Source: a virus
DNA length: 64,000 nucleotides
Reading direction: 5' to 3' (one strand)
Virus record (IMG/VR): IMGVR_UViG_3300048837_000984
Coordinates: 129,695-193,694 of that record
This document shows positions 2,341-60,618 of this stretch, piece by piece. Within the stretch, counting starts at the first letter, position 1, and each line of letters begins with the position of its first letter. The notes under the pieces are model-generated. The model was not told where the DNA came from. It worked only from the letters and a program-made list of their open reading frames with translations, and did no database searches. A program made the position numbers and the translations under genes.

Positions 2341-3432
2341 CTAGTAACGTCCGGCCAGGATGCGGTATGCAGCCTGTTCGACGCGTTCCCGTTGCGGAAT
2401 GGAAAGTTGTTTGGCTTGGTTACCGAGACTGTTATACAGGTCGACCAGAGACCGGTCTTCCCAAGCAGCTGGTGGCACTGCTTCAAGTCCAGCATAGACA
2501 GCCTTATTGTCACTCCCGCACAGAACGCAGGAATGAACGGCCTTCTGGGCTACCGTATGACCGACGCCCAGCTTCTTTAAGCGCAGACTGACCTTTTCCA
2601 TCTTCTCGGCCTGCCTTGAGAACGACTCGGCTGGAGCGAAGATACGACTGTCTTCCATGGCTTGGAAAAAGTCCTCATACGATCCAGAGTTTGTCGAGTC
2701 GTCAATCTTTTGAAGGAGCCTCTGTAGCTTGGCTTCGAAGGAGTTACCCCGATGCGGGACTTTATTTTTAAGTCCCATCGGCTGGATTGCTGCCGTCCAC
2801 GTTTTGTCGCGAAAAATGGCGCCGGCAGCACGTATGCTGCTAGCGCCAGCTTCGTTGTTTGAAAAGTGGTAACCGGCGTAGTAGAGGTCGTTACCGAAAG
2901 AAAAACTGGGGTGTTGTCTCCTGTACCGAAGCATCAACCAGCGACCGACGATCACGGCACCCAAGAATATTACGCCATGGTGTTGTACGGCAAAAGATAT
3001 CCTTTTGTGCAGCTCCTCGCTCGGCAGCCACCGATAACCAGAACCTACTATACCGTCAACTACCCCAGTCGATTCGTCAATAATTAGCTTCTTCCCGTAA
3101 AGCCTGTCGAACCTTGCCCTTAGGATATTTCTCAGCGAAGAAACAGCGATTGACAGACTTTGAGAAGATTCGTCAGTCAGCAAGTCGTTGACGACCCTGT
3201 GTAAACCTGAACAGGTTCCCTGACAGAGCTGGTAGAGAGCCCAGTCAGAGAACCTGTACCCATCAGCCTCTGTTCTGCCTGTGTCGTCGATCAGAACTTC
3301 CCTTACATCCCCTATCGCAACCAGATTCGAGTTCTTGTGGATCCTCTCGAGTTCTTTCTGGAAGGCGTCGAGGCCGGAAGAGTTGAACTTGTGGACCTTA
3401 GGCGTAACAGATAGCGATCTCATGGCGACCAC
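2341..3432 (-). CDS. Hypothetical protein, possibly DUF932-like
   Basis: 363-aa ORF; WALYQLC...GIVGSGYRWL...FSNNEAGASSI loosely resembles DUF932 (QLC...AVVSxxY...NSExG). Confidence 0.5.
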   Translation of the reverse strand: MVAMRSLSVTPKVHKFNSSGLDAFQKELERIHKNSNLVAIGDVREVLIDDTGRTEADGYRFSDWALYQLCQGTCSGLHRVVNDLLTDESSQSLSIAVSSLRNILRARFDRLYGKKLIIDESTGVVDGIVGSGYRWLPSEELHKRISFAVQHHGVIFLGAVIVGRWLMLRYRRQHPSFSFGNDLYYAGYHFSNNEAGASSIRAAGAIFRDKTWTAAIQPMGLKNKVPHRGNSFEAKLQRLLQKIDDSTNSGSYEDFFQAMEDSRIFAPAESFSRQAEKMEKVSLRLKKLGVGHTVAQKAVHSCVLCGSDNKAVYAGLEAVPPAAWEDRSLVDLYNSLGNQAKQLSIPQRERVEQAAYRILAGRY

Positions 3433-3977
3433 CCCAGCCGGTCAAGGAAGTAACTGAACGGCTGGATACCGAGACGTCGCCCTTCTTCATTCGCGACAGA
3501 AATGGCGGCATCTCGAGCAGAGGCGTCGTCGTGGACGATCCACAACGAGCCCTTGGCTCCGGAGTTAAGCCACTCGAACACAACCCCAACAGGTTGGTCC
3601 TCTTCGGTCCAGCTACCGGGAACTAGATCTTGAAACCGATTGTACGCCCTGAACAAAGCCAGGGACGCGTGGCGTTTGGGGTTGGCTAGCTTGTCAATGG
3701 TCATATCGTGCGCGAAAGGGACGGGCCTTATCACCAGCCAAACAGGGAAACTGTTGTACCGATCGTGAAAGGCATGAAATGTCAGCCTGTGTCGCCCGGT
3801 TGTTTCAGCGACGCCGCGAACAAGGCTGGTTTGAATGTCCTTCAAACCGTAATGCTTCAACAGGAAGGCAACTCCTCTCTTCTCGAAACGAGCAAACGCC
3901 GGTTCGCGCCTGTTAGCGAATCCTTCGCTCCGGGTATAGGCATCCACAGCATCGTCAAGAGGAAACTCACTGCTCAT
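3420..3977 (-). CDS. Hypothetical protein
   Basis: Likely start MSSEFP at 3977 overlapping the recA stop; no recognised motif. Confidence 0.65.
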   Translation of the reverse strand: MSSEFPLDDAVDAYTRSEGFANRREPAFARFEKRGVAFLLKHYGLKDIQTSLVRGVAETTGRHRLTFHAFHDRYNSFPVWLVIRPVPFAHDMTIDKLANPKRHASLALFRAYNRFQDLVPGSWTEEDQPVGVVFEWLNSGAKGSLWIVHDDASARDAAISVANEEGRRLGIQPFSYFLDRLGWSP

Positions 3978-5316
3978 CTGGGACTCCAGCAGTGCTCTTG
4001 TGACTGGCCTCGGCGATTCTCGCCAGCAAGGCACGGTAATCGAACCCAGGGCGATACATGAAACGTCTACGGATGCCCAGCACAGGATACAGGGCATCTC
4101 TCAGTGAAGGGTTCTTCTGAAGCTCTTGCTCCAGGAGGGCACCCATCTCCCTGGCCGAGATCTTTTCCTTTTCGGAAATGCCCAGGGTCTTACTCCAGCA
4201 ATACCTCCGGTCAACTTTCTCGATGTGAAGGACGTCAGCCAGCAGACGGGACTGAGTTGTTTTCTCCTTCAGCAGTGAAACGACAATATCGACAGAAGCC
4301 GAGTCCCAGTCGAAGAACGTTCGCTGGGGGTAGATCATGACTGTCTTCTCTTCTCCACTCTCGTCGTCAAAGACGGTCTTTTCGACCTGCTCGGAGAAGT
4401 CCGTGTACCAGAGCATCTCCACGTCTACAAAGGAGTGCGGTGCCGCTGAGTTCTTCATGATGCAGATACGCAACTCAATGCCGTCAACAACATTACCGTC
4501 TTCAACCCGCTTCAGTTGCGAAGACTTGGTTGTCGGATTGACGGAAGAGACGCGGCGCATCTCTATCTCAGTCGTCTCGTGAAACTTGAGGCTGTACCCA
4601 CCCGCAATGTTTCGGACGTTGGTGCCCTGCTGGGTCTTGCCGATCTTTAAATGGTTGGTGCCGATGACTGAGAACGGGTACTCGTCGATCTCCTTGGTCA
4701 GAACTCGAACGTAATCGTTTAGCATGCCCGCGGTTACAGCGTAGTGCCGCTCAGGAATGCCTTCGGCAACCAGGCGGTCATATTCCTTCTCATCGATAGC
4801 TGCCATGAGGCTGTCGATCGTAAAGCACACCGGTGCGATGCGACCGAACCCCTTCTCTTTTCCAGACCCATCCATCAACGTCTTGAACGTCTGGATCCAG
4901 TTGTTGAGCGCAGAGTTCCAACCATCCATGGTCTTGCACTTCTGGTAGTTGGCTGCCTTGTAATCGTAGTTCAGGATAGACCAGAACAGCTCTGGCGCTG
5001 GTTTGAACTCAGTATCCAATAGGATGCCCTTGCCCTTACAAAGGCGGTGCCAGCGAAGGATCTCATAAGAGAAAGCTGACTTGCAGCTCTCTTGCTCCCC
5101 GACGAGCATGGTGAACCTACCCAAGGGCCACCCCTCCTGCTGGAGTAGGTACCGCACAGCCAGAGACGGAACTGGCAGGCAGATTAGTAGCTGTTCAGCT
5201 TCAGACCCCGCAAAGATCTGGCCACTGTACCGTTTCTTGTTCTGCGACGTTGCTGAATCGAACATCTCGTCGATCGAGCTGGTGTCGAGCGTAGCTTGTT
5301 GCTTCTTTCTAGCCAT
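3967..5316 (-). CDS. recA: RecA/UvsX-like recombinase
   Basis: Walker A variant LVGEQESCKS, LLDTE, Walker B FTIDSLMA, VIGTNHLK, GGYSLKF; start moved to MARKKQ (5316) because a terminator occupies 5321-5352. Confidence 0.85.
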   Translation of the reverse strand: MARKKQQATLDTSSIDEMFDSATSQNKKRYSGQIFAGSEAEQLLICLPVPSLAVRYLLQQEGWPLGRFTMLVGEQESCKSAFSYEILRWHRLCKGKGILLDTEFKPAPELFWSILNYDYKAANYQKCKTMDGWNSALNNWIQTFKTLMDGSGKEKGFGRIAPVCFTIDSLMAAIDEKEYDRLVAEGIPERHYAVTAGMLNDYVRVLTKEIDEYPFSVIGTNHLKIGKTQQGTNVRNIAGGYSLKFHETTEIEMRRVSSVNPTTKSSQLKRVEDGNVVDGIELRICIMKNSAAPHSFVDVEMLWYTDFSEQVEKTVFDDESGEEKTVMIYPQRTFFDWDSASVDIVVSLLKEKTTQSRLLADVLHIEKVDRRYCWSKTLGISEKEKISAREMGALLEQELQKNPSLRDALYPVLGIRRRFMYRPGFDYRALLARIAEASHKSTAGVPDEQ

Positions 5317-42753: not shown

Positions 42754-43080
42754 TTATTCGGGCACAACGTACTTCCGATTGATACCGAAGCCACCGACGT
42801 ACTGCAAGGCTCCGTCCTTGACCATGAAGTAGATGGCATCCTGGATAATCGACCGCTTGCCCAGTTCGATCTTGTCCGTAAGTGAGTACTCAAGGACTTT
42901 CTTTACGCCCTTGTGACGTCGAGCCCTGTAAGCGTACTTCTTTTCGAAACGCTCCAGGGCTCGCTCTTTCGTTATCATGTCTCGAACAAGTTCGAGAATC
43001 TCGGCAGTCGTCGTGGCTTCTCCCCTTTCCTTAATGTAAGCCACGATCTTGCGCCGATACACCACTTGCTTGTGTTTCAC
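42754..43080 (-). CDS. Basic, possibly winged-helix protein
   Basis: IVAYIKERGEATTTAEILELV...; 108 aa. Confidence 0.55.
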   Translation of the reverse strand: MKHKQVVYRRKIVAYIKERGEATTTAEILELVRDMITKERALERFEKKYAYRARRHKGVKKVLEYSLTDKIELGKRSIIQDAIYFMVKDGALQYVGGFGINRKYVVPE

Positions 43081-44099
43081 TCCACGGCCTCCAAGATGTC
43101 ATTCGGCTGGATCAACTCCAGCTCGATTGCCCGCTTGAGAATCGTGATGAACGCCCGAGCTGCCGCAGCCTTGTCCTCGGCCGAAGACATACCGACGTTC
43201 GAGGCCGTTCGAGCACGAACCAGAGACTCGGTGAGACCGTTCACCTTGCGGAGAAACTTCTGCCGGTTCGTCAGTGAACCAGTCGTCTTGGTTTTGGTGC
43301 GCTCCCGGGTAGCCGCCATTTCAGCCCGGATAGCGTCCAGGGCCATCAAGGCCGAAGCCTGATCCGGGGCATCCTGGACCCGCTGCACGATACCGGGCAG
43401 ATCTTCGCCGACTGGCTTGAACTCACAGATCAGTCGGGCCAGCTTGACCGTCACCGGGGTGTTGACCCGGCTTCCAGCCTGGACCTTAGCCAGGGCGTGA
43501 ATGTGGTCGTGCGTCAGGCGGAACCGCGCGACGTCGACGCCTTCCTTGAGGACCAGCTGAGTGATGTTGCGCCGCTCTCGGTATTCCAACAGACTCGACC
43601 GAGAGATCTGTACCGTGGCAGATGCGTCCGTGACGCTCAGACCCTGCTCATCGACCAGCTGAGAAGCGTAGATGCACCGCTCTTCGAAAGACACATCTCG
43701 CCCGTGGTTCAGGTTGAAAGCCATGGGCAGCTCTGCCACCGTCCGGTCGTCATCGCACTCGATAACGTAAGCCCGGATGGTCGCCAGCTTGAGAATCTTG
43801 GCCATCTCCGTCCGGTGATATCCGCTCAGGATGACTGGCTTCTTCCCCTTGCGGATGTTGACGACCGGATACGGGAACCGGTTCTCGTGGTGGATGGCCC
43901 CGTCAACCATCTGGTCGACGTACTTCTGGTCGATACGACCGCCCAGAACTCGCCCGTTGTTGACCGTGGAAAAGTCGATGTCCGAAATCTTGACGTCGCG
44001 GACTTCCGCCGCAACCCCGTACTTTGCCATGACGCTCAGCGCGCCATCGTCAGGAATCCACAGGTCGTTACCGTTGACCTTCTTGCTCGCCTTCGACAT
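43077..44099 (-). CDS. ParB/Srx-like domain protein with HTH
   Basis: VKISDIDF...PVILSGYHRTE...NLNHG...LSVTDASATVQIS. Confidence 0.8.
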   Translation of the reverse strand: MSKASKKVNGNDLWIPDDGALSVMAKYGVAAEVRDVKISDIDFSTVNNGRVLGGRIDQKYVDQMVDGAIHHENRFPYPVVNIRKGKKPVILSGYHRTEMAKILKLATIRAYVIECDDDRTVAELPMAFNLNHGRDVSFEERCIYASQLVDEQGLSVTDASATVQISRSSLLEYRERRNITQLVLKEGVDVARFRLTHDHIHALAKVQAGSRVNTPVTVKLARLICEFKPVGEDLPGIVQRVQDAPDQASALMALDAIRAEMAATRERTKTKTTGSLTNRQKFLRKVNGLTESLVRARTASNVGMSSAEDKAAAARAFITILKRAIELELIQPNDILEAVE

Positions 44100-44100
44100 A

Positions 44101-45015
44101 TCAGATCTCCACACTGCGCTTTGGTCGTTGATTGAAAACTTCCGCGTTCTTGACGTCCTCGACAAACAGTCGAAGAGTCTTCACCAGTCCGGATGCGACG
44201 TCGCGAGAACCCTTACGATTGTCGTCGTTCAGGTCCTTGTGACCGACTTCGAGAAGATTCCGGGCACTCCGGATCTTCTCTTTAACTTCAGGAGACGTGA
44301 CGAAGCCGAAAGACTCCATCTTCTCCAGCGCCAACTTGACCGCGGTCAGGTTACTTTCCTTGACAACCCCCTTGGTATCGATACGCTCGGTAAGAGTCGA
44401 AACCGCTTGCTTCAGTTCCTCCTCCATCGAACTAGCGATGACCTTGGCAGTCTCCTTGACCAGGCTCTGGACCTCGCGGACAATCTCACTGGCGTACTGA
44501 ACCGCTTCCTCTCCGCTCAGTTTGTTTTCGCCGTGAGATAGAGGGAGCACGTAGCGTTTCGCTAAAAAACACTCTCGAAGAGCCGCCTCACTTTTTGGTA
44601 GATATTCTCGGATCTCCCGAAATTGGTGCTCTGTGTAAGCATTCTGAATGCTCTGAACAATTTCATCCCATTGAGATACGAACTCCTCAACCGCCGTCGC
44701 GAATTGCGTCTTGATGAGCATATCCGTGAGGTTGAAATACTCGACAGCCTTCGTAGCTGCGACCGCGCTGATCCCGTCGATCGGAAACGGTAGCGAGAAC
44801 CTTCGAAGGAGACCTCTGAGTTCGGATTCGATAGATGAGAATCTCTTGTGCCACTTGTCAGGTAGCAACTTCCAGCGCGGGTTAGTCACGTTCGATTCGG
44901 CCACTTCCTCGCCAGAGACCTGGACTGAAGCGTTCCGAACCTTTCTCTGACCACGCCACCACTGGATTTTCAAATTAACCAGAACAACTGACCGATCAGT
45001 CTGGTTCTGCGTCAT
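44101..45015 (-). CDS. DUF3150-like protein
   Basis: VNLKIQWWRGQRK...WKLLP...LRRFSLPF, helical C-terminus; module context. Confidence 0.6.
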   Translation of the reverse strand: MTQNQTDRSVVLVNLKIQWWRGQRKVRNASVQVSGEEVAESNVTNPRWKLLPDKWHKRFSSIESELRGLLRRFSLPFPIDGISAVAATKAVEYFNLTDMLIKTQFATAVEEFVSQWDEIVQSIQNAYTEHQFREIREYLPKSEAALRECFLAKRYVLPLSHGENKLSGEEAVQYASEIVREVQSLVKETAKVIASSMEEELKQAVSTLTERIDTKGVVKESNLTAVKLALEKMESFGFVTSPEVKEKIRSARNLLEVGHKDLNDDNRKGSRDVASGLVKTLRLFVEDVKNAEVFNQRPKRSVEI

Positions 45016-45394
45016 CTCCTTCCTCTCCTTTGGTTATCCCCTCGAAGAGAGCCTCGACAACGTCGTCGAGTTCGTCCACGGTAGGAGGCCCGTCTGGCCA
45101 GGTGTCGAACACACCGTCTTCGGTCATGTCCTTCAACTCGGCTTTGACCGCAGAGATGCCGAGCTGAACTATGCGGAACATCCTTGAGTTGAACTGCTCC
45201 TGTTCCTTGTCCGCTTCCTCGACGGAAATGTCGTTAATGCTGACAACGGGGCTAATGCCCCACACCCCCTGGTTCAGCAGGTTGGCCTCTTCTCCAGCTG
45301 CTATGGCTTCCTCGACAGTGGCAAAGACCTGGTTGTCCTTGTTGACAACGAAGTCGAAGCCGTTGTGAGGATCGCCGATGAGGATGATGTACAT
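44996..45394 (-). CDS. Acidic hypothetical protein
   Basis: 132-aa ORF overlapping both neighbours. Confidence 0.65.
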   Translation of the reverse strand: MYIILIGDPHNGFDFVVNKDNQVFATVEEAIAAGEEANLLNQGVWGISPVVSINDISVEEADKEQEQFNSRMFRIVQLGISAVKAELKDMTEDGVFDTWPDGPPTVDELDDVVEALFEGITKGEEGDDAEPD

Positions 45395-47223
45395 TAGTTG
45401 TCTCCGGGATTGATATGGGCCTGTCGGCCCTGTCGTTGGCTCGTGAACTGTGGCTTAGCCAAGCTCACTGGGGTAGCGTTGTTCTGACAGAAGTCCATGA
45501 TAGCCTGGACACTCTTTGCTGCCAGCTTGTAAACAGGCGAAATAGTTTTGTGGGCCTGCAGGACGTCATCCAGGGTAGGCTGCAGTTCTCGCCGCTGTAC
45601 GAAGGCTCTGCGCACGGACATGATGCAGATCTGTTCCAGCTCCGCACCAGTGAACTGGTTCGTACTGTCTACAATGACCTTCTTGTCTGCCGCCTTGAAA
45701 GTCGAAAAGCTTGCGCCGTTCTTCTTCATGTGGATGGTCAGAATCTCTTCCCGTTCCTGTGCAGATGGGAAGTCCGTGTAGAACGTTGCGTCGAGCCGAC
45801 CGGTTCGGATTGACTCGACAGGTACTACCATCTTGCCAGTCACTGGGTCGGCCAGCTTGTTCATGGTCATGATAACGAACGCATCGCTATTCTCGTTCGC
45901 CATCCAGGACAGGAGTCGACCGAAGACCCGAAGGCTGACGCCACTGTCTCCGCTACCCTCGTCAATGCCGCCGAAAGCCTTGTCTGCCTCGTCGATCAGG
46001 ACCACGCATGGACCTTGCGACTTGATGCGCTTCAAGGCCAGGCGCTGCCTCGTCTCGGACTCACCGACGATCCCGGCGAATACGCTGGAGAAGTCGTATT
46101 TGATGAGGGGTATCCGCATCGCCTTGGCTGTCGCCATGGCGACTGTACTTTTCCCAGTCCCGGCGATCCCCAGCAGGAGAACGCCCTTGGGCTTGCGTAG
46201 ACCGACCTTGGCCGCTTCCTCGGAGTAGCAGACCTTGCACTCCTCTACAAAATTGAGATAGTTCCTGTAGCCGCCGATATCCTGCATGGAGGCGATGCTC
46301 TCAGCGTCGATATATTCCAGAACATCGTCGTTCTTGAACGTAGCGGCCTTTTGGCGGTTGATAGTCGTTACCGCCTCAGGTGGAAAGCCGCGGTGACGGA
46401 CACCGCACAGGTAAAGAGCGTTGTTGGCTTCCGTACTGGTTAAGCCTCGAAGAGCTCGAACGATCTCGTATTTGGTGGCCTCGTCTGGTGGCTCGATGTT
46501 TCCGACAAACCCGTTTGAGGTCAGGACTTCTTCGAGCTCCTTACGAAGCTGCGCCTCGGAAGGGTTCTCGAACTCCAAGCTGGCACAACAGTGCTTGATG
46601 TCCCCTGGAATACTCCACTCTGGCTGCATCAGCACGATTGGCCGCTTGAAAGAGGACGACACCAGAAGGTTGTTCTCGAACAGGTACCGAATCACTCGCT
46701 GGCACCGGGGATCCACGTCAGCCACATATCGGTGAATATCGTGGAACACGAAGATGCACCGCTTCGGGAACCGGGACGGGTCTGTGTCGATTGTCGACAG
46801 CAGCGCCTCGTAGGGATCCCCGACACAGGCGCCCTTCTCCAGGCCGGCAAAGCCACTTACGACGTCATAGGTTACGACCGAGTATCCGAAGGCTGACAGC
46901 AGATTCTCGATGCTGGAAACAAGATCCCGATACTTTGGCTGGTCGATAGAAGCTGCCCGGTCCAGGATCTTGATCATTAGAGGCGCGTCAACGGTCAAGA
47001 CTGAGCCGGAAAACATTTCCTCGGCGGACTCGTCTAGCGATACCAGGCTAGCCTTAAACTCGCTGATGTCGATGTTGGCTGGCGTAAGGTCGACGGTCTT
47101 CTTGTTAGCGAGAAGCCAACCAGAGCGGCGGATCTCGTCCACCGCTCTGGTCTCTTCGGTTGTGTTGATATTGAGGATTGCGTAGCCGGCTTTGACGTGT
47201 TCAGTGAAATTCTGAATGAACAT
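45394..47223 (-). CDS. Ycf46-like AAA+ ATPase
   Basis: Degenerate N-terminal AAA domain (TTEETR, FHDIH), then KGVLLLGIAGTGKS, IDEADK, IRTGRLD. Confidence 0.9.
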   Translation of the reverse strand: MFIQNFTEHVKAGYAILNINTTEETRAVDEIRRSGWLLANKKTVDLTPANIDISEFKASLVSLDESAEEMFSGSVLTVDAPLMIKILDRAASIDQPKYRDLVSSIENLLSAFGYSVVTYDVVSGFAGLEKGACVGDPYEALLSTIDTDPSRFPKRCIFVFHDIHRYVADVDPRCQRVIRYLFENNLLVSSSFKRPIVLMQPEWSIPGDIKHCCASLEFENPSEAQLRKELEEVLTSNGFVGNIEPPDEATKYEIVRALRGLTSTEANNALYLCGVRHRGFPPEAVTTINRQKAATFKNDDVLEYIDAESIASMQDIGGYRNYLNFVEECKVCYSEEAAKVGLRKPKGVLLLGIAGTGKSTVAMATAKAMRIPLIKYDFSSVFAGIVGESETRQRLALKRIKSQGPCVVLIDEADKAFGGIDEGSGDSGVSLRVFGRLLSWMANENSDAFVIMTMNKLADPVTGKMVVPVESIRTGRLDATFYTDFPSAQEREEILTIHMKKNGASFSTFKAADKKVIVDSTNQFTGAELEQICIMSVRRAFVQRRELQPTLDDVLQAHKTISPVYKLAAKSVQAIMDFCQNNATPVSLAKPQFTSQRQGRQAHINPGDN

Positions 47224-47225
47224 TC

Positions 47226-47921
47226 TTACCCCAGTCCCACCTCTTGCGCGTCCTTCAGCTTCTGTAAAGCCCCGGACACAAACCGTTTCATCGATTCTGT
47301 GTTGGCGTTCTTCAACCCAGCCTTCGACAGCTGGTTGACCAGAGCGAGCATTCGCCCGGTCACGATGGCGTTGATTGTTTCGGTTTTCGAAGTCTCCATG
47401 TCGAACATCGCGTTGAACATGACCGGATCGTCGGAGAAGTCGTACTGGACCCGGTCGACAAGCTTGTTGTCCCGAGTAGCGATCCGCAACACATCCGGAG
47501 GCGTGATGATACCCTCAGCGTCCAGGACCTTACCCATAAACGCTGTAATCTCTTCGTTAAACGGGTTTTCTGTTTCCGGCGGAGACAGGAGAAGCGCTTC
47601 GGTCACTCCCCAGGCGATATCGTCGGAGTCTGGTAGAGCCAGAATGTCGCTAGGAACGCTGTTGCCGGAGAGGATAACGCATAGCCTGGCAAAGTCGACT
47701 ACGCTCAGGAAGAAGCTGTTTGTAGTCAGGATGGCGATTGCCGCCATCAGACGCTCGAAGTTCTCTCGCGGAATCTCCAGACCGTTGTCTTCCTCGATTT
47801 GGATTTCAATGGCCAGAGGCTCCCAGGACAGCGCTTCACTGCCGTAGGCGTCCAGGAACATCGCGACCAGAGTGGTCGCGAACATGCTAGGATCTTTCCA
47901 GAGCTGATTTCCTTTGAACAT
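47226..47921 (-). CDS. Hypothetical protein
   Basis: 231-aa acidic ORF. Confidence 0.75.
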   Translation of the reverse strand: MFKGNQLWKDPSMFATTLVAMFLDAYGSEALSWEPLAIEIQIEEDNGLEIPRENFERLMAAIAILTTNSFFLSVVDFARLCVILSGNSVPSDILALPDSDDIAWGVTEALLLSPPETENPFNEEITAFMGKVLDAEGIITPPDVLRIATRDNKLVDRVQYDFSDDPVMFNAMFDMETSKTETINAIVTGRMLALVNQLSKAGLKNANTESMKRFVSGALQKLKDAQEVGLG

Positions 47922-48366
47922 CGGCGCTTTCCTTCCGTCGTTGCAGGGAGTCGAGCTTGCGTTTGGCCTGCAAAGCCAGTGCGCCGATATTATAAGTGAT
48001 TACTTCGACAGGGGCTTCGTTCAAAGTTGGCCGGTGATCCCCGCTTGCCAGACAGAGAAAGCCGTCCCGACCGGACAGAACGGCATAACTGCGATCAAGG
48101 ATGGCCAGTTGCATTATCACTGTTTCTTTGTCCGGCTGGAACTCGCAGCCGAACTTGACCAGATCGTCGACATAATTATTAAGTAGCAGGTCGACGGCTT
48201 CGGGAGAGATAGGCGACGACGAGGACAGCAAAGCAGCAAGCCAGACGAAGATAGACTCCCCAAAGCCCAGAGCCTCTTCATCCGTTCTCTTTAGCTGTCG
48301 CCACAGCTTTCGGATTGCTAGTGGAGACAGCTTCGGAAATAACTTTGCTGCCTCGTCGCGGGTCAT
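47887..48366 (-). CDS. Hypothetical protein
   Basis: 159-aa ORF with coupled junctions. Confidence 0.7.
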   Translation of the reverse strand: MTRDEAAKLFPKLSPLAIRKLWRQLKRTDEEALGFGESIFVWLAALLSSSSPISPEAVDLLLNNYVDDLVKFGCEFQPDKETVIMQLAILDRSYAVLSGRDGFLCLASGDHRPTLNEAPVEVITYNIGALALQAKRKLDSLQRRKESADVQRKSALERS

Positions 48367-48677
48367 ATCGCACCAAGACCAGAGTTCATCTCGTAAGTAC
48401 AGTGCCAGCCGGCTGTCTTCTCGTGACCGCGGAGAAGGTCAGCTGTGGTTTGACCGGCCTCGTTAACCGGAGTTGGCGTCCGATCCAGGCCGAAGCCACG
48501 AACAGCGAAGCCGTTCTTGATGGCTTCTTCCTGTGCCTTAGCTCTCGCCGCCTTGGACAGAAGACTTTCTCGGTTACGCGCCTTGAGGACCACGACAGCA
48601 TTGCAGGTGTCGACTCGCTTGAACGAGACCACCTCGAACTCGCTAGTATCTGCCGCCTTGTTGAAGTCGATCGACAT
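48363..48677 (-). CDS. Hypothetical protein (104 aa from MSIDFNK)
   Basis: GGTGGTG RBS-like sequence before ATG at 48677; the longer 48845 start would run through structured RNA. Confidence 0.65.
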   Translation of the reverse strand: MSIDFNKAADTSEFEVVSFKRVDTCNAVVVLKARNRESLLSKAARAKAQEEAIKNGFAVRGFGLDRTPTPVNEAGQTTADLLRGHEKTAGWHCTYEMNSGLGAI

Positions 48678-48699
48678 TTCACCACCCATAGTTAAAGAT

Positions 48700-49492
48700 A
48701 AGGGCCGGAAAGGCTTAATATCTAAAATACCAACCCCACTACCGCACGTCAGTAGAAAAGATAGAGAGCTACGTATGTAGCACTCCACCCAATCGACTGA
48801 CTGTGCGGTAGTGAGGTTGTGATGTATTTGCCCTTTTCCGGTCATCCGGTTGGCGGGCTGCCTGTCCTTTTGTACGGTAGACTAACCGCCAGGGATTATC
48901 TGTTAACCCTGGATCTTGTCCGGTCTATCCGGACTACGCGGGTCCAGTGCGGGGCCGCTACCCCTTCGCACCGCTGGCAGGCAAGATACATCCTCCACAA
49001 GCTGCCAGTCCTGTGGAGACTTGAGTGTCGGGCAGCATCGGGTTGCTAGGCCGATGCTGCACTCTCGCAACCTTAGTGGCAATAAGGCCTGCCGAGCCGG
49101 CTTTTTCTCTGGGAGCCACCCAGGCGGTTAAGCTTTACCGCAGCTGTCTTTACAGGGTCCCCCCTGGCCGTAAAGACAGAAACCGAGAACTTTTAACGCA
49201 GTTACTATGCGGACTGTTACGGAAGTTCTACCGGAGCTCTGTCACCCAGACAGAGATGGCCGTGTTTTCTGGAACACGGAAAGAGACGCAGGCCAGCGCT
49301 GCGTCGCGCTTCCGGGTCGGTCGAGCGCGAACTCGACCGACCCGGTAATTAGCTGTTGCCAGCTATTTTCAGGTGACGACTGGAAACGATCCAGCCGCCA
49401 CCCGGTCCCCCGGACACGCGTTGACACGCTCTCAGGTCTGGGAGTCAGAAACCTAAGGGCGTATCACCTTTAATTGACGCGTTTTTGGTGAG
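48700..49492 (-). ncRNA. Candidate large structured non-coding RNA (~800 nt)
   Basis: No credible ORF; roughly 20 consecutive helices including 14-bp (49312-49345), 13-bp (49372-49402) and 17-bp (48731-48819) stems, three clear GNRA loops, minus-strand G-U wobbles and a pseudoknot. Confidence 0.8.
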
Positions 49493-49495
49493 TTT

Positions 49496-49756
49496 TTAGG
49501 TGAGTGTGACGTCTCGGCCGTTTGGTAAAAATACGCGGATGGCCTCGACCTTGAGAAGAGTCTTGAGCGTCTGGATTCCTTCGGTGGTGAGAGCTGCTGT
49601 GGCTGACTTGATGAAGTCGTAGTCGGGTGCAATGGTTATCTTGCCGCAGCAGCCCGACTTCTTTATCGTCTTTCCGAAGAAAGGGAAGACCTTCCGGACC
49701 TCCCGCTTCTTGGCTAGAGACTTGATAGCCTGGTTATCCAGGAAGAGGCTTCGCAT
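49496..49756 (-). CDS. Small basic hypothetical protein
   Basis: 86 aa, contains SGCCG. Confidence 0.7.
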   Translation of the reverse strand: MRSLFLDNQAIKSLAKKREVRKVFPFFGKTIKKSGCCGKITIAPDYDFIKSATAALTTEGIQTLKTLLKVEAIRVFLPNGRDVTLT

Positions 49757-49759
49757 GAC

Positions 49760-50158
49760 TTACTGACCCGCTGTGTATATCTCTGGCGGACTCAGCCGGT
49801 CAGAGATGTTGAGTGTCTCAATGAGCTGATCGACGTCAGCCTTGATTGCCGACCAACCCTCGTCAGCGTCAGCCAAGGTCTCGTAGAACAATGAAACACT
49901 ATCAGTCCGATAGTAGATGCCGACCGTTGAGTCATAGCTGGTTGGGAGTGTATTCATCTCGACCGGCGTGCATATTCCTTCGTAAATGACTTCTATGTCT
50001 TCAGCGTCGTCGCTAAGTGTCAGGACACGTACACGGAAGACCCGGTCATCGATGTTATTGCCATCCGACGCGGAAACAACCAGACGGTAACCAGTTACTG
50101 AGGTACTGGTGTCTGGGACCGTACTGGATCGGGTGAGCTTCAGAGTTCGACTAGCCAT
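49760..50158 (-). CDS. Hypothetical (probable virion) protein
   Basis: 132-aa beta-rich ORF in the tail region. Confidence 0.7.
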   Translation of the reverse strand: MASRTLKLTRSSTVPDTSTSVTGYRLVVSASDGNNIDDRVFRVRVLTLSDDAEDIEVIYEGICTPVEMNTLPTSYDSTVGIYYRTDSVSLFYETLADADEGWSAIKADVDQLIETLNISDRLSPPEIYTAGQ

Positions 50159-50212: not shown

Positions 50213-50734
50213 TTACCCGTCAAGCCAGTCATCGTCCCATTCAGCGAACGGATTTTCCATCATCACCGGGTTAGGGTCTAATAGTTCGGCCGTCTCGATC
50301 TCTTCTATCACAGCTTGCACAGCCTCTTCCCATGTCCGGTTGCGGAGCCGTGGTGGAGTCGGCATCCCCGCAGCCTGGAGCGAGTCGGCCACCTGATTGC
50401 ACCACGCCCGCGTTTCCACCAGCGACTTGTAAAGCACGCGAATAACCACTTTGAGACGTTCGGATTGCGTGTCAGTTGCTGCGAGTGATTCCACGAGCCG
50501 CTCGCGTTTGATCTGCGTCGGCGTCCGCGTGTCAACGTGGTCCGCGATCACTCTTGTCGCGACACCTGGATCGGTTCCGTCAGGCAGACGGAAGATTAGA
50601 CGATCTTGTCCCGCGTAGATCGGCTTCAGTTCGCCTGGAAACTGTGGAACACCAGCTGCGATCAACTCTGTCTTGAGTCGACCGAAGTGCAGTTGCTTCA
50701 GAGGAACGTTTACCTCGATCACGCTACACCTCAT
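50213..50734 (-). CDS. Hypothetical tail-fibre-associated protein
   Basis: ATGA overlap with the tail fibre stop. Confidence 0.65.
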   Translation of the reverse strand: MRCSVIEVNVPLKQLHFGRLKTELIAAGVPQFPGELKPIYAGQDRLIFRLPDGTDPGVATRVIADHVDTRTPTQIKRERLVESLAATDTQSERLKVVIRVLYKSLVETRAWCNQVADSLQAAGMPTPPRLRNRTWEEAVQAVIEEIETAELLDPNPVMMENPFAEWDDDWLDG

Positions 50735-52650
50735 GTCTTGATGATGAAGTAGACCGCAGCCCATGGTTGCATATTGTTGTGGGCTGCCCCGCCACCCGTT
50801 GACGAAGACGTTACGAATGCTCCAGGAGGATCCGTACCGAAGTTGAGCTGAGGATAAGCAACGCCACCGCTGTCGCCGTCGTAGAAGACGTTGTGGGTGT
50901 GGGCGGGCATTTCACTCTCGACCAGGGTGTGGGTCTCGCTGCCGCCGGTCTGACCCAGTGTGCGTGCGGTCAAGCCTGAGCCGGTACCCACACCGATGGG
51001 GGCGCGGCCTTGCAGGTCTGGGACGTTGAAGGTGGTGGAGCCATTGCCAGCTCCCCAGGTGGTACCAACGACAGCAAAGAGATCAGCGTAAGTAGTTCGA
51101 GATACAGCAGAACCGTCACACAAAAGCCACCCTGACGGAATGCTTCCCAACGTGCCGCCAAACATCTGAATGGATCCTGCCGGTATAGCGCGAGCCCATT
51201 CGGGAGCACTGCCAGTTCCTCTTGTCGTCAAAACATATCCGTTAGTTCCCGCCGCAAGCCTTGTCCAGTCCGACGCCCCGCGATAAAGGATGTCACACGT
51301 TGCAACCGAACCAACCATATCCAGAACTTGAGTCAGCGTACACTCTTCAACATCACCGGCGCCGGCTGTTCTACGTCCCAGGACACGCGACGTAGTTGAG
51401 ACGTTTTGCATTTTGGCGTAGGTCACCGCGTCGTTATCGATTGTCCAAACTGTCCCGCCACTGCTAACTGTGATGTCACCCTTGTCACCGTCACTTACAC
51501 TTACGCTAGATATAGCGTCGAGCGTTCCACCTATGAAAGTCAATCCAGAGCCTATAGTAACTGCACTCCACGTGTCAGCACCTGAGCGGTAGTAGATCGT
51601 GTCTGTCCCGCTTAGAGCCTCCAGAGCGGCTAGATCGTTAGCGAGTGCCAGCGTCATGTTGCCGGATGTCGTGACCGGAGATCCGCTGACTGAAATGCCT
51701 GCCGCAGGAGCGGTGATGCCGACGCTGGTAACGGTGCCAGATCCGCCGGTAGCCGTAAGCGTTCCGCTGCTAAACGATAATCCCGTGCCAACGGTAACCG
51801 CTGTCCATGTGCTGTCCGCAGATCGATAGTAGATCGTGTTTGTTCCAGTCAACCCCTCCAGAGCGGCAAGGTCGTCAGCTAGAGCAAAGGTCCACACACC
51901 AGAGCTGGTGACTGGGTTTGTTCCGGATATGGTTAGACCGGCGCCGGGCTCTATATAACCGATACTCGTTACTGTGCCAGATCCGCCACCTCCGCCGCCG
52001 GCCGTAACCGCTTCAAGGATGTTGTTGATCTTCAGGTAGAAAGTAGCTTGCCCTTGCGTAGCAGCGTCTAGATCGTCGCCACTGGAGGTTGCTCTGACCT
52101 CAAGATCAACCGCAGAGCCGTAGCTAAAGATGTAAGCGTAAGGCGAATTGTAGTTGTAAGTGACGCCATCACTAGGCGCAGAGTTTACTTGTCTGGTGTT
52201 GCCCCAGGCGTTACCGTTGATGTATAGCTCAAGTTCGTAGTAGCTGATTGATCCGCCACTGAACGACTGCGTATGGTGAATCGCCATGGCTTCGACGAAG
52301 CCACCCGGGGCCAGGTCATCTATCTTGAAAAAGCTCTCTACGCCAGCTGTAGCGAAGTCTGCGTAGTCAACGTCGTACTTGACCCACTGAACTCCACCAG
52401 TCTGGGTACCGTCTGGCGACGTAAAGTTAACCAGGACTGTTCCAGACACTGGCTCAGATATGGAAAAACCGTCGTCCTGGTCGAACTGGATCTTGGCGAC
52501 GGACGTGTAGGACGGTGTCCCATCCTTCTCTTCAACCGTCAACGCAGTTCCGCTAGAGGCTGGGTCATAGGTCGTCGGACACGCCCCCACAACGCTCAGT
52601 TCAGGCGGGTCGACGGTTGCAACGACCATGTTGGTGCAGGTTTTGGCCAC
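50731..52650 (-). CDS. Tail fibre protein with C-terminal tail-collar domain
   Basis: G/S/T-rich repeats; IPAGSIQMFGG..IPSGWLLCDGSAVSRTTYADLFAVVGTTWGAGNGSTTFNVPDLQGR. Confidence 0.9.
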   Translation of the reverse strand: MAKTCTNMVVATVDPPELSVVGACPTTYDPASSGTALTVEEKDGTPSYTSVAKIQFDQDDGFSISEPVSGTVLVNFTSPDGTQTGGVQWVKYDVDYADFATAGVESFFKIDDLAPGGFVEAMAIHHTQSFSGGSISYYELELYINGNAWGNTRQVNSAPSDGVTYNYNSPYAYIFSYGSAVDLEVRATSSGDDLDAATQGQATFYLKINNILEAVTAGGGGGGSGTVTSIGYIEPGAGLTISGTNPVTSSGVWTFALADDLAALEGLTGTNTIYYRSADSTWTAVTVGTGLSFSSGTLTATGGSGTVTSVGITAPAAGISVSGSPVTTSGNMTLALANDLAALEALSGTDTIYYRSGADTWSAVTIGSGLTFIGGTLDAISSVSVSDGDKGDITVSSGGTVWTIDNDAVTYAKMQNVSTTSRVLGRRTAGAGDVEECTLTQVLDMVGSVATCDILYRGASDWTRLAAGTNGYVLTTRGTGSAPEWARAIPAGSIQMFGGTLGSIPSGWLLCDGSAVSRTTYADLFAVVGTTWGAGNGSTTFNVPDLQGRAPIGVGTGSGLTARTLGQTGGSETHTLVESEMPAHTHNVFYDGDSGGVAYPQLNFGTDPPGAFVTSSSTGGGAAHNNMQPWAAVYFIIKT

Positions 52651-57332: not shown

Positions 57333-58181
57333 TTACGCAGCCACGACGGTTCGCGTGCAGATTGCACCGTTGGGGATGGCCCGATTACCTTGAAGAACTG
57401 CCAGACCGAATCGCCCCCAGTTCTTCCAGCTGTTCAGGATTAACAAGCCAAAAGATCCGGCTTCAACCTGAACGATGCGCAGAGCACATACCGAATGTCC
57501 CCACCAGTTGAAGTCGACAGCACATGGCTGGTTACCGAACAGGGCTGTGGCGACCTGGTCGAAGGCCAGGTTCTGGTAGTAGACCGGACGCGTCAAGTCT
57601 ACCCAGTCTTCTACGATGCGGTACTTCTTCATGTTCTCGCGAAGGGCTGGCGTGTCGTAGGCGAGGTTGCGGGAGTGGAGTGGCCACTGCCCTGGACCGT
57701 TGCCCTCTTCAGCATAGCCCACCCTTCTCCCGAATTCGGCGGACAGCCCGCACCAGCCGCCCTCGTCAACGCCTCGCTTGATGATTGCAGCTACCGAATG
57801 GGGGTTGAGTCGGACCAATGGCTGATTGTCTCGCAGGCGTGAAATCATGACCGTGTGTCCGGTCGAGTACGCCCAGCAGTACCCGTGACCATTCTGGTCC
57901 AGGCAGGTGAACCGAGGCTGATTGCCAGAGGCACCCAAGTAGATGTGCTCCAGAGAAGCTTGCTGCTCTTGCTGTTCCTGGCACCTGGCAGCCCACTCCG
58001 AGCGAGGGATCACCTTCATTTCGCTCGGGGGAGCAAACATCTCTTCAGGATATAGGTTGTAGTCCCGTTCGACATATCCACGACCGAAGACGTTCCCATT
58101 CTCATCCTTGACGTTGAACAGGTCATCTACCGGCGTACTATCGTCAATGAGTGGAATTCCGTTCCACATCTTGTAAGCCAT
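57333..58181 (-). CDS. Papain-like (C1) cysteine peptidase
   Basis: DQNGHGYCWAYS (Q/C), WWGHSV (H), LILNSW (N). Confidence 0.88.
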   Translation of the reverse strand: MAYKMWNGIPLIDDSTPVDDLFNVKDENGNVFGRGYVERDYNLYPEEMFAPPSEMKVIPRSEWAARCQEQQEQQASLEHIYLGASGNQPRFTCLDQNGHGYCWAYSTGHTVMISRLRDNQPLVRLNPHSVAAIIKRGVDEGGWCGLSAEFGRRVGYAEEGNGPGQWPLHSRNLAYDTPALRENMKKYRIVEDWVDLTRPVYYQNLAFDQVATALFGNQPCAVDFNWWGHSVCALRIVQVEAGSFGLLILNSWKNWGRFGLAVLQGNRAIPNGAICTRTVVAA

Positions 58182-58915
58182 TACTCGCCTCCGTATTTTT
58201 TCAGGAGCTTGATAGTTTCGTCCACGGTACCCGGTAGCGGCCCTTCGAAGCCCGTCTTACCGTTAGAGATGACGATCCAGGGGATCGATTTACGGTCTCG
58301 ATTCATAGCTTTTGCCCAGACAGCACCAGCGCCCGAAGCGTCGACGTCTTTGTCCCAGATGCGCCATTCCTTGGTTTTGTTGTCGGAGCCGACAACGCAC
58401 TTCTGATCTAGGTAGTCTCGAACCTTCTTGCTGAATAGCACTGAAGACTGCTCTTTGGGCAGCTCGCCAACGGTTGCAGTTTCGTAAACCATCAGCACAC
58501 GGAATCCGGCCTCCGGAATTGGAGCAGGATTGTCCGGATCTGGCGTCGGACCCGGCTCTGGGCCGGGTTCCGGTCCTGGATCAGGGGCGTTACCTACGAC
58601 GACAGTCTTTCGCAGGATGCTGGGGACGGATGCCCCGTCCTTATCCACAGTGATTGCGATGAGAAGAATTTCGTACTTGCCGGGTGGAGCAACAAAAATG
58701 AGCTCCGGGTTTCGTTTGTCGGTGGCCAGGTCAACCTTCGCAAAAGGCTGGACGTCCCACACAACGTTAGCCTTACCTTCTAGGCCGTCAATCTTCTGGC
58801 GAACCAACTTGTACGGCTCGACCTTATCTGGTCCGACGATTGTCGGGTCGGCTGTGACAAGTCCGACCACGCAGGCCAGAATTGCCAGAGCACGGAACAG
58901 GATGCCAGTTTTCAA
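58181..58915 (-). CDS. Signal-peptide protein with Pro linker and thioredoxin-like C-terminal domain
   Basis: MKTGILFRALAILACVVGLVTA signal; PDPGPEPGPEP linker; IPWIVISNG...GPLP. Confidence 0.7.
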   Translation of the reverse strand: MKTGILFRALAILACVVGLVTADPTIVGPDKVEPYKLVRQKIDGLEGKANVVWDVQPFAKVDLATDKRNPELIFVAPPGKYEILLIAITVDKDGASVPSILRKTVVVGNAPDPGPEPGPEPGPTPDPDNPAPIPEAGFRVLMVYETATVGELPKEQSSVLFSKKVRDYLDQKCVVGSDNKTKEWRIWDKDVDASGAGAVWAKAMNRDRKSIPWIVISNGKTGFEGPLPGTVDETIKLLKKYGGE

Positions 58916-58956: not shown

Positions 58957-60618
58957 TTACAGGTTCGGGGTGTCGACCGTCGTGACTGTTATCGCGACGT
59001 CACTCGGCTGGCAAAGCAAAGCAACGGTTCTGCCAGTTGTCATGTCTGCGGGCGCGTCTGGAATGGTCAACAAGGTGCTGCTCCGAACAATACTCTCCGA
59101 CCCGGATGGTTTTCGCACCCTGCCCAACATGTCGATACTCGTCACGCTCACAAGACCGGTCGGAATCAGCGTGTGCATCAGGTTCGACAGGAAAGAAGCC
59201 GATAGCGAACCTGCAAACCCAAGACCGTTGATAGCATCCGAGACCGCCTGCTGCATCGAAGCTGTGCTTGGCGCTGTAATACCTGCCTTGATATTAGCCG
59301 TTAAGCTGATGGACAGAAAACAGGGAACCGCAGCCTTCACACAAATATCACTCATGGTCGGACGAACCGACCGCTGGGTCAGGTAGGCTTGCAGTTCCAA
59401 CACCAGGGGCATGTGGCGAACAACAACGTTGTAACTCTTCGTGGAGACGCCAGTCGTTAGACTTGTTGCGTCGGTCACCGTGTCTGTAAACGTCACGGTG
59501 CTGGTCTGGAAGTTGGTGTACACAGCCTCAGTAGCTGACGTAATGTCTGGGATAAACTCGTGGTCGTCGTCTTCGGTCAGACTGTATGATCGCGTTTCCG
59601 TGAGAACGCTGTAGCCGGCTGCAGTGGCGTCCGAAGTCGTTAGCTGGATCTTCTCGATCTCGTAGTAACCCGGAGCCTCATCTCGGGTAACACTGAATTG
59701 CCAGGTGCCAACCGCTCCAACCTTTGACAGCAAGGTGGCTGTCTTGGCCAGCGTTGTCGTCTTCCAACCCAGCTGGCTAATCAGGTACAGATCGACCCGA
59801 CCGCCGAGAGAGCCTGGCCAGATCGAGTGCTGGTCTCGCAGCATCTCCGCGTCGCCAAACCCGATGATCGACAAAGAAATTATGTCGGCGAAGTCTTCCT
59901 GGGCTCGAATCATGGATTCAATGGTGACTCGGTTGGACCAAGCTCGAACTCCCACTCCGGCTTCGACACGCGCAATTAGCGCTGCGTTCGTTTCGTCGTC
60001 GACGCCGCCGGTGAAGTCAGCAGCCGCATAGGCTTTGACAAAAGCCGGAATAACCGCCTCCGTCGTTGCGGTTGCTGCCCGCTTGGCGTTGCTGGCCGTA
60101 CCAACAGCTGATGCTGTGACAGCCACGTTGAAGCCCCATCGCCCAGCCTCCATGGCTGTCAGCAGGCGGTCGTTGTCGGTCAGAACCAAGCCAGAGCTTG
60201 TCCGACCCATGTAGGCTTCGTCTGTCGTGTAGTCCAGATCGTTGATCGTGAAAACCGTACCGGCTGGGATGACGACAGGCTGTAACGCGCTAAAAACCAG
60301 AGTCAGGTTGCCGGTAGCGTACGTCCCCGCTTTTCGGCTAATCAGGTAATTCGAAGCCAGGCGATCAACCACATCCGTGTCCGCTCCAGCGGGGTCGTCG
60401 ACCACGGCTTGGACAGAACTGGAGTCTTGAACTAGCTCAATGTTTCTGTTGTTTACCGCAGACAGAACTGCTGACGGTTGCAGAACAAGGTCGTGGACTA
60501 CCCCCCGCTTCAGGTCAACTTCAGCGTTGTACTCCTGAACGATAGTCTTGTTGAGCTCTTTCTGCTGATCGACTTCAGCCTGCGTGAGGTCGGTAAGGCT
60601 GGTAACTGAGACAGTCAT
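58957..60618 (-). CDS. Baseplate J-like protein
   Basis: ATGNLTLVFS...IPAGTVF...ASAVGTASN...FTGGVDDETNAALIAR. Confidence 0.85.
   Translation of the reverse strand: MTVSVTSLTDLTQAEVDQQKELNKTIVQEYNAEVDLKRGVVHDLVLQPSAVLSAVNNRNIELVQDSSSVQAVVDDPAGADTDVVDRLASNYLISRKAGTYATGNLTLVFSALQPVVIPAGTVFTINDLDYTTDEAYMGRTSSGLVLTDNDRLLTAMEAGRWGFNVAVTASAVGTASNAKRAATATTEAVIPAFVKAYAAADFTGGVDDETNAALIARVEAGVGVRAWSNRVTIESMIRAQEDFADIISLSIIGFGDAEMLRDQHSIWPGSLGGRVDLYLISQLGWKTTTLAKTATLLSKVGAVGTWQFSVTRDEAPGYYEIEKIQLTTSDATAAGYSVLTETRSYSLTEDDDHEFIPDITSATEAVYTNFQTSTVTFTDTVTDATSLTTGVSTKSYNVVVRHMPLVLELQAYLTQRSVRPTMSDICVKAAVPCFLSISLTANIKAGITAPSTASMQQAVSDAINGLGFAGSLSASFLSNLMHTLIPTGLVSVTSIDMLGRVRKPSGSESIVRSSTLLTIPDAPADMTTGRTVALLCQPSDVAITVTTVDTPNL

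Follow-up and report, generated by a model that had tools for sequence, protein, structure and literature searches.

The window, a 64-kb stretch of viral DNA, comprises bases 129695-193694 of the IMG/VR virus record IMGVR_UViG_3300048837_000984, which is 193,694 bp long and has a 127-bp terminal overlap. It contains a structured element that lies between g86 and g104, and the genes around this element are all on the minus strand. In the order of transcription, these genes are:

58957-60618, minus strand: baseplate wedge gene, upstream of the element
50731-52650, minus strand: tail-fibre gene with a Collar domain, upstream of the element
directly on the upstream side of the element, minus strand: small genes g183 and g132, followed by g86
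49496-49756, minus strand: g86, a small conserved gene from the ORF list, with its stop codon TAA at 49496-49498
48363-48677, minus strand: g104, the first downstream gene, from the ORF list and synteny, with its ATG at 48677 and homologues of 90-103 aa
downstream of g104, minus strand: g159 and then g231 (47226-47921)
45394-47223, minus strand: AAA ATPase gene, downstream of g231
43077-44165, minus strand: ParB-like gene, downstream of the AAA ATPase gene

The initial annotation had bounded the element by the g86 stop codon and the g104 start codon, and both boundaries are right, with one database gene call putting the g104 start four codons earlier. The GC content of the interval (0.56-0.58) is near that of its neighbourhood. 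The element had also been placed among late genes, which holds for the upstream side with its baseplate and tail-fibre genes, but not for the downstream side, where small unknown genes, the AAA ATPase gene and the ParB-like gene lie. With tail genes upstream and ATPase and ParB genes downstream, the element is on a module border and not inside a run of late genes. The AAA ATPase has matches in cultured phages only below 35% identity. ARAGORN found no tRNA within the 64-kb window, and the two tRNAs of the genome are more than 70 kb from the element. A tRNA with a 4-base anticodon (cata), to which ARAGORN assigned no identity, is at G000:C1:101511-101585 (minus strand), and a normal tRNA-Met is at 107457-107528 of the same genome.

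The interval 48678-49495 has no credible ORF, in agreement with the initial annotation. The ORF list shows no ATG ORF with a Shine-Dalgarno sequence in it, and the eight longest ORFs from both of its strands have no significant Pfam or PHROG match. Searches with tblastn and six-frame HMMs found no trace in the element of the proteins carried at this position by related phages (see below), and a remnant of a relative's cargo gene was rejected on this ground.

The strong folding that had been proposed for the interval is borne out. The minus strand of the 818-nt interval folds at -392.8 kcal/mol, against -289.5 +/- 6.7 kcal/mol for 20 dinucleotide shuffles (z = -15.5), and a separate set of 12 shuffles gives z = -24. 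The plus strand also folds well (z = -12.0). Among the 968 non-overlapping 200-nt windows of the genome, the two whose structure most exceeds what their GC content predicts fall in this interval (z = -5.3 and -5.0). More over-structured 200-nt windows are found at G000:C1:93200-94700 and 57800-58200, both on the minus strand (z = -3.3 to -4.2), and the first ~500 nt of the 94.7-kb region are free of ORFs bearing a Shine-Dalgarno sequence. The stems named in the initial annotation were all recovered from the sequence, the MFE structure and the repeat search, and its 7-bp stems are also part of the MFE structure. The predicted parts of the element are:

48724-49467, minus strand: predicted ORF-free RNA of ~744 nt with roughly 17-20 hairpins, from the fold, the z-scores, the genome-wide outlier position, and the lack of a coding signal or an Rfam family
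49372-49402, minus strand: 13-bp hairpin with G.U pairs that are A.C mismatches on the other strand (MFE structure and mismatch census)
49351-49366, minus strand: 6-bp hairpin capped by the GNRA tetraloop GCAA (MFE structures)
49312-49345, minus strand: perfect 14-bp hairpin with arms 49312-25/49332-45 (inverted-repeat search)
49144-53/49170-79: 10-bp stem (repeat search)
49124-49141, minus strand: 5-bp hairpin whose 8-nt loop contains the self-complementary AAGCUU (49130-49135)
49032-41/49051-60: 10-bp stem (repeat search)
48974-49018, minus strand: candidate H-type pseudoknot, loop CUGGCAG (49008-02) against CUGCCAG (48980-74), with perfect 7-nt complementarity
48730-48821, minus strand: long 3' hairpin of ~35 bp with internal loops, 92 nt, a candidate terminator or 3'-end protector (MFE fold and repeat search); the arms of this 3' domain are 48731-47/48803-19

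The pseudoknot loop has a flank-shuffle p of about 0.016, with six loops tested, and a palindrome within a loop, such as AAGCUU, is within what chance would give (about 0.3 expected). By our estimate, the long-range complementarities of 12-17 nt do not exceed chance level. The repeat search found no repeated motifs, iterons or repeated units in the element, and a repeat family or MITE-like element was rejected accordingly. Only two terminator-like hairpins are present in the element, no more than in shuffles.

Several cues bear on the strand of the structure. In helices built from Watson-Crick pairs only and read in the minus sense, the 1x1 transition mismatches are G.U in six cases versus A.C in one (p about 0.06). 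Folding of the sense strand is favoured over that of the antisense by 24 kcal/mol, of which composition gives ~9, leaving ~15. In nine stretches that follow the promoter-like motif P1 (described below), from this phage and eight relatives, GNRA loops account for 5 of 13 tetraloops in sense versus 1 of 15 in antisense, where the chance rate is 1 in 32, and the sense strand is the more stable one in six of the nine. Each of these cues is modest and none is strong alone, but jointly they favour structure at the RNA level on the strand of the genes. The G.U-type mismatches, the GNRA loops and the folding energy make the minus strand the best reading, as first suggested.

g231 has 88 homologues in metagenomes, the best with 55% identity, and with their alignment 80 loci were retrieved on phage contigs, many of which measure 190-230 kb. 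Iterative HMM searches found the g86 family in 74 of the 81 stretches searched, always followed by a variable slot, and gave the conserved order g132-g86-slot-(g104)-g159-g231. From g86 to the next conserved gene the slot measures 43 nt to ~950 nt, and is longer where extra genes are inserted. In this phage, the element fills the slot and is flanked by two motifs:

49463-49501, minus strand: P1, a two-block promoter-like motif with 52 distinct instances in related loci, gapless and with fixed spacing
48718-48729, minus strand: U-rich tract UAUUUU plus the boundary motif TTTAGATAT (consensus TTTTTAGCTAT), which recurs in the genome and in relatives

The P1 consensus, from the 52 distinct loci and directly after the g86 stop, is GCTAAATT, 15 nt of A-rich sequence, GGCATATTA, NN and TG. 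In this phage P1 reads CTAAAAA, CGTCAATTA, AGGTG from 49501 to 49463, with the upstream CTAAAAA block overlapping the g86 stop, a -10-like block CAATTA at 49476-49471, and the conserved TG at 49466-49465. Its conservation and position make P1 a candidate promoter, from which transcription would start at about 49465-49468. The RNA had been suggested to be processed from the late transcript; this need not apply, given a family-conserved promoter-like motif at the 5' end of the element. P1 recurs at four further sites of the same genome, where an ORF in the same orientation and with a Shine-Dalgarno sequence follows 40-70 nt downstream. A compact cassette of promoter, small ORF and terminator is found at two of these sites, one coding for a membrane-like protein of 46 aa and the other for a Cys-rich one of 63 aa, and P1 at the remaining two precedes ORFs of 77 and ~97 aa. 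The cassettes, at G000:C1:20300-20660 (plus strand) and 50460-50900 (minus strand), consist of a P1-type motif, a 5' hairpin, the small ORF, and a hairpin with TTTTTAGCTAT. The 63-aa ORF of the 50460-50900 cassette has a CxxCxxCxxC motif, and this cassette is among the most structured spots of the genome. Of the ~57 relatives with a recognisable P1, ~45 have downstream of it a leader of 50-70 nt that contains a 5' hairpin, and then an ORF. Inside the element there is neither an internal P1 nor a full boundary motif.

The TTTTTAGCTAT-type motif has ten sites in the genome of this phage, seven of which have the T run directly after a GC hairpin stem. Besides 48718-48726 of the window, sites include genome positions 19473, 50502, 52183, 57760, 116241 and 123678 on the minus strand and 20608 and 108081 on the plus strand. 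The motif often lies 9-12 nt before a Shine-Dalgarno sequence and start codon, and it closes the slot in the clade-B relatives, which are nearest in slot organisation. A terminator tail, a short phage promoter and an RNA processing site are all possible readings of the motif. A simple terminator scan did not call the base stem of the long 3' hairpin (48730-48821). In some relatives, the U run does not directly follow the hairpin that precedes the boundary motif, so P1 transcripts may read through into g104, which would favour a leader role.

The content of the slot differs widely between relatives. Thirty loci have a conserved 124-aa ORF with a Shine-Dalgarno sequence. The slot gaps of 35 clade-A relatives, which have conserved islands, were considered as homologous RNAs and rejected, since these gaps contain the conserved 124-aa ORF, surrounded by pieces of promoter and terminator. 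The closest relative, L085 (53% identity in g231), has a ~200-nt structured leader and an unrelated 100-aa ORF. Three relatives have a tRNA in the slot downstream of P1 (L066:3953-4025, L076:3810-3881 and L078:3934-4005), two of them together with an ORF. In L029 (745-1638), the cargo protein belongs to DUF1559 and bears a pilin-like N-terminal methylation motif. The DUF1559 family is expanded in Planctomycetota, and this cargo may hint at a Planctomycetota host range for part of the phage family. Only a ~75-nt RNA of two hairpins lies between P1 and g104 in L056, L064, L065 and L081.

ORF-free structured units also occur in the slots of other relatives. The 162-kb relative L008 has an unrelated ORF-free or ORF-poor stretch of ~570-600 nt (3427-4046; z = -10.5) with two GAAA-capped hairpins, a candidate second orphan RNA. 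L006 and L077 have ORF-free structured units of ~400-510 nt (z = -8.5 for the whole gap in L006), L011 has one with z = -7.0, and L010 is a similar case. The units of L008, L006, L077, L010 and L011 are unlike the present element in sequence and mostly unlike each other. A different insert, conserved, GC-rich and strongly paired, occupies the first 130-200 nt after the g86 stop, before P1, in many clade-A relatives (L012, L015, L016, L020, L021, L028, L031, L036, L037 and L052). This insert begins with CCGCACCTGCCACG and could represent either a terminator complex or a small structured RNA of its own.

With unrelated cargo in each lineage, the hypervariable slot resembles a moron site in its behaviour, and among its RNA-only cargos the element is the longest. 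Phage morons are independent promoter-gene-terminator units between conserved genes, such as bor and lom of lambda. The element resembles them in its own promoter-like and terminator-like signals, as read from the sequence, in its conserved flanks g86 and g104, and in a slot that is variably filled even between close relatives; the same promoter type also precedes small-ORF cassettes in this genome. It differs from them in that its cargo is an ORF-free structured RNA and not a protein gene.

No known RNA family accounts for the element. A cmscan of the whole 64-kb window with 4227 Rfam covariance models gave no match at gathering scores, including none to OLE, raiA, HEARO/omega RNA, group I and II introns, RNase P, tmRNA, 6S, small ribozymes or riboswitches. 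The GOLLD and ROOL models run over 48300-49900 with permissive filters found nothing at E<=10, and the suggestion of a divergent member of either class fails at both thresholds. The permissive cmscan at E<=10 returned five sub-threshold hairpin look-alikes, namely symR (27.9 bits, with a cut-off of 61), three miRNA models and one snoRNA model; the symR and miRNA matches were rejected as simply hairpins.

Searches for homologues were equally negative. At the syntenic position in related phages, where the initial annotation proposed to look for them, nhmmer and blastn found none in the 80 loci. blastn against 50,697 phage records gave no homologue, BLAST against 26 related phage genomes (17 of them at least 90% complete) gave only chance matches of at most 26 nt, and a covariance model built from the 5' 171 nt of the element as its single sequence matched nothing but that sequence. 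Exact-pattern scans with 20-22-mers of the element had no matches in viral contigs, 36 in metagenomes (all by chance, within GC-rich coding sequence) and two in a genome collection (both by chance). Across syntenic loci, related genomes, phage records and pattern scans, the element is thus an orphan RNA. The same position in relatives holds unrelated and often protein-coding cargo, which indicates an orphan cargo RNA and not a conserved RNA class. The idea of a large phage non-coding RNA therefore stays plausible for an interval that is ORF-free and exceptionally structured, but as an orphan in a variable slot and not as GOLLD or ROOL.

Other phage systems share some features with the element. 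The lambda PR'-6S RNA-tR' unit and StxS of Stx phages are transcripts of ~75-200 nt that depend on the Q antiterminator. They have in common with the present locus a conserved promoter or promoter-like motif, a non-coding transcript (here predicted), an end hairpin just upstream of an operon, and a region that also takes in tRNAs and accessory genes, whereas the predicted unit here is ~745 nt. The intercistronic RNase III processing hairpins of T7 are single, with ~60 nt per junction. They too are stable sense-strand hairpins between phage genes, and they define RNA ends, whereas here there is an array of ~20 and any cleavage is hypothetical. GOLLD and ROOL are large ornate RNAs of phages and prophages, 600-800 nt long and ORF-free, with many helices and an accessory character, and are often near tRNA islands (10.1101/2024.12.08.627333). 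The element is likewise phage-borne, ORF-free and in the same size range with many predicted helices, and three relatives have a tRNA in the same slot. Unlike GOLLD and ROOL, it has no covariance-model match, not even to the universally conserved 3' domain of GOLLD, and no conserved core in common with any other sequence. Its stems are longer and more perfect, and, unlike for GOLLD, no tRNA adjoins it. A catalogue of structured RNAs from IMG/VR admitted only motifs with covariation and at least three matching regions, and these are 67 nt long on average (PMC10690425). The element likewise is intergenic and structured and comes from an uncultured phage in a database of this kind, but under such rules a 745-nt orphan would not be captured.

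The element is real and striking, and its genomic setting is well defined. Its sequence and predicted fold suggest that it is probably a large non-coding RNA. The reading preferred here, although tentatively, is that of a discrete ORF-free RNA of ~745 nt that is transcribed from P1, ends at the 3' hairpin, acts as an RNA and constitutes accessory cargo. P1 (49501-49463) would start minus-strand transcription near 49466, and the transcript, lacking a translatable ORF, would fold into ~17-20 hairpins, most of them long and GC-rich and some closed by GNRA loops, with one candidate pseudoknot besides. It would end, by termination or processing, at the 3' hairpin and the U-rich TTTAGATAT boundary (48821-48718), before g104. 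The product would be a discrete, nuclease-resistant RNA that acts as RNA and not as message, and may have an accessory role in host interaction, for example by serving as scaffold or decoy for a factor that binds RNA or dsRNA. The accessory role is suggested by the slot itself, which holds small accessory genes, tRNAs and other hairpin RNAs in relatives. We infer the transcription, the RNA ends and any action in trans. Several points count against the accessory RNA: it is an orphan; many of its stems are long and perfect, which is atypical of old conserved non-coding RNAs and typical of young or simple hairpin elements; the strand cues are modest; P1 transcripts may read through into g104, as the hairpin geometry of some relatives suggests; and the 3' hairpin was not called by the terminator scan.

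The main rival is a structured cis-acting 5' leader, or an insulator at the module border, of the g104-g159-g231-ATPase operon, with P1 as the operon promoter and no role in trans; this is possible, although on the whole unlikely. Such a leader could block Rho or RNases, provide RNase III or RNase E sites, or act through promoter-proximal termination relieved by antitermination, of the lambda PR'-tR' type. P1 is kept in the four relatives where only the ~75-nt hairpin RNA precedes g104, and in these 6-9 nt separate the stem from the U run, so that termination should be weak. The prevalence among relatives of P1 before an mRNA with a short 5' hairpin leader, the exact position of the element between the tail-fibre and the ATPase/ParB modules on the same strand, and the frequent occurrence of the boundary motif directly before a Shine-Dalgarno sequence also fit a leader. 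However, 745 nt and 17-20 hairpins are far beyond what stabilisation or insulation needs, since ~60 nt suffices in most relatives. In this phage the U-rich tract adjoins the 3' hairpin, as in a terminator, and the two terminator-like hairpins of the element do not exceed the shuffles. Decidedly unlikely is non-functional debris of a recombination hot spot, in which 5' hairpins, terminators and inverted duplications stayed behind as cassettes were repeatedly gained and lost, and are transcribed only incidentally. A hypervariable slot, unrelated content in the closest relative and the orphan status of the RNA are as this would predict, and the long perfect stems suggest a recent origin. In addition, degenerate boundary-like pieces follow two internal hairpins, by our reading: UGAAAAUAGCUGG after the 13-bp stem and UCUUUCC after GACGCAG/CUGCGUC. 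Yet the z-score of -15.5 across 800 nt is hard to obtain by accident, and the sense-strand enrichment of GNRA loops and the G.U bias of the transition mismatches also speak against debris. The element shows no enrichment of terminator-like hairpins and contains no internal P1 or complete boundary motif, and ORF-free structured units have been kept here in several independent lineages.

A role at the DNA level, with hairpins extruded from single-stranded DNA for replication priming, recombination or packaging, appears improbable. Both strands beat their shuffles, as is the case for inverted repeats in DNA, but at this place neither does the GC skew turn nor do the genes change strand, and a replication origin was rejected because no skew signal is found at the element. 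The palindromes are all different, without repeated motifs or iterons, so a protein would find no shared site in them; the G.U and GNRA cues of the sense strand indicate RNA, and the flanks are expression signals and not AT-rich unwinding DNA. That the element encodes one or more missed small proteins is very improbable. The other P1 cassettes of the genome do code for proteins of 46 to ~97 aa, and the interval has three ORFs of 31-34 aa that start with GTG or TTG and have weak Shine-Dalgarno-like sequences, as well as an in-frame ATG at 48845 that could lengthen g104 to 160 aa. On the other side, its ATG ORFs lack a Shine-Dalgarno sequence, the candidate ORFs are buried in stable stems, and no ORF has a significant match in Pfam or PHROG. 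The extension of g104 would cross the 35-bp hairpin, and the g104 homologues (90-103 aa) align to the short form only.

A wider proposition is that large phages of this family repeatedly evolve lineage-specific giant RNAs, which would be 400-750-nt arrays of hairpins, some GNRA-capped, under a conserved promoter in an accessory slot, and would represent new, fast-evolving RNA effectors. This is speculative and rather unlikely. If true, the effectors could be, for example, decoys for host RNases or for defences that sense dsRNA or RNA, or self-assembling particles; self-assembly could here use the palindromic AAGCUU loop and the 48974-49018 pseudoknot. Since each is an orphan, such giant RNAs would be invisible to discovery based on covariation. 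GOLLD and ROOL are among the least understood RNAs, and to our knowledge the large structured RNAs of phages, these two included, have been found only through conservation. The present element is RNA-only cargo of GOLLD/ROOL size, extremely structured, under a conserved promoter-like motif, and unique to one phage. Should orphans of this kind be functional, surveys that rely on covariation are systematically blind to a class of fast-evolving phage RNAs. The P1 motif, the cargo and the boundary motif define a slot that is a concrete place to seek orphan RNAs, and P1 and the boundary motif are candidate expression signals for an uncultured phage family with genomes of ~190-230 kb.
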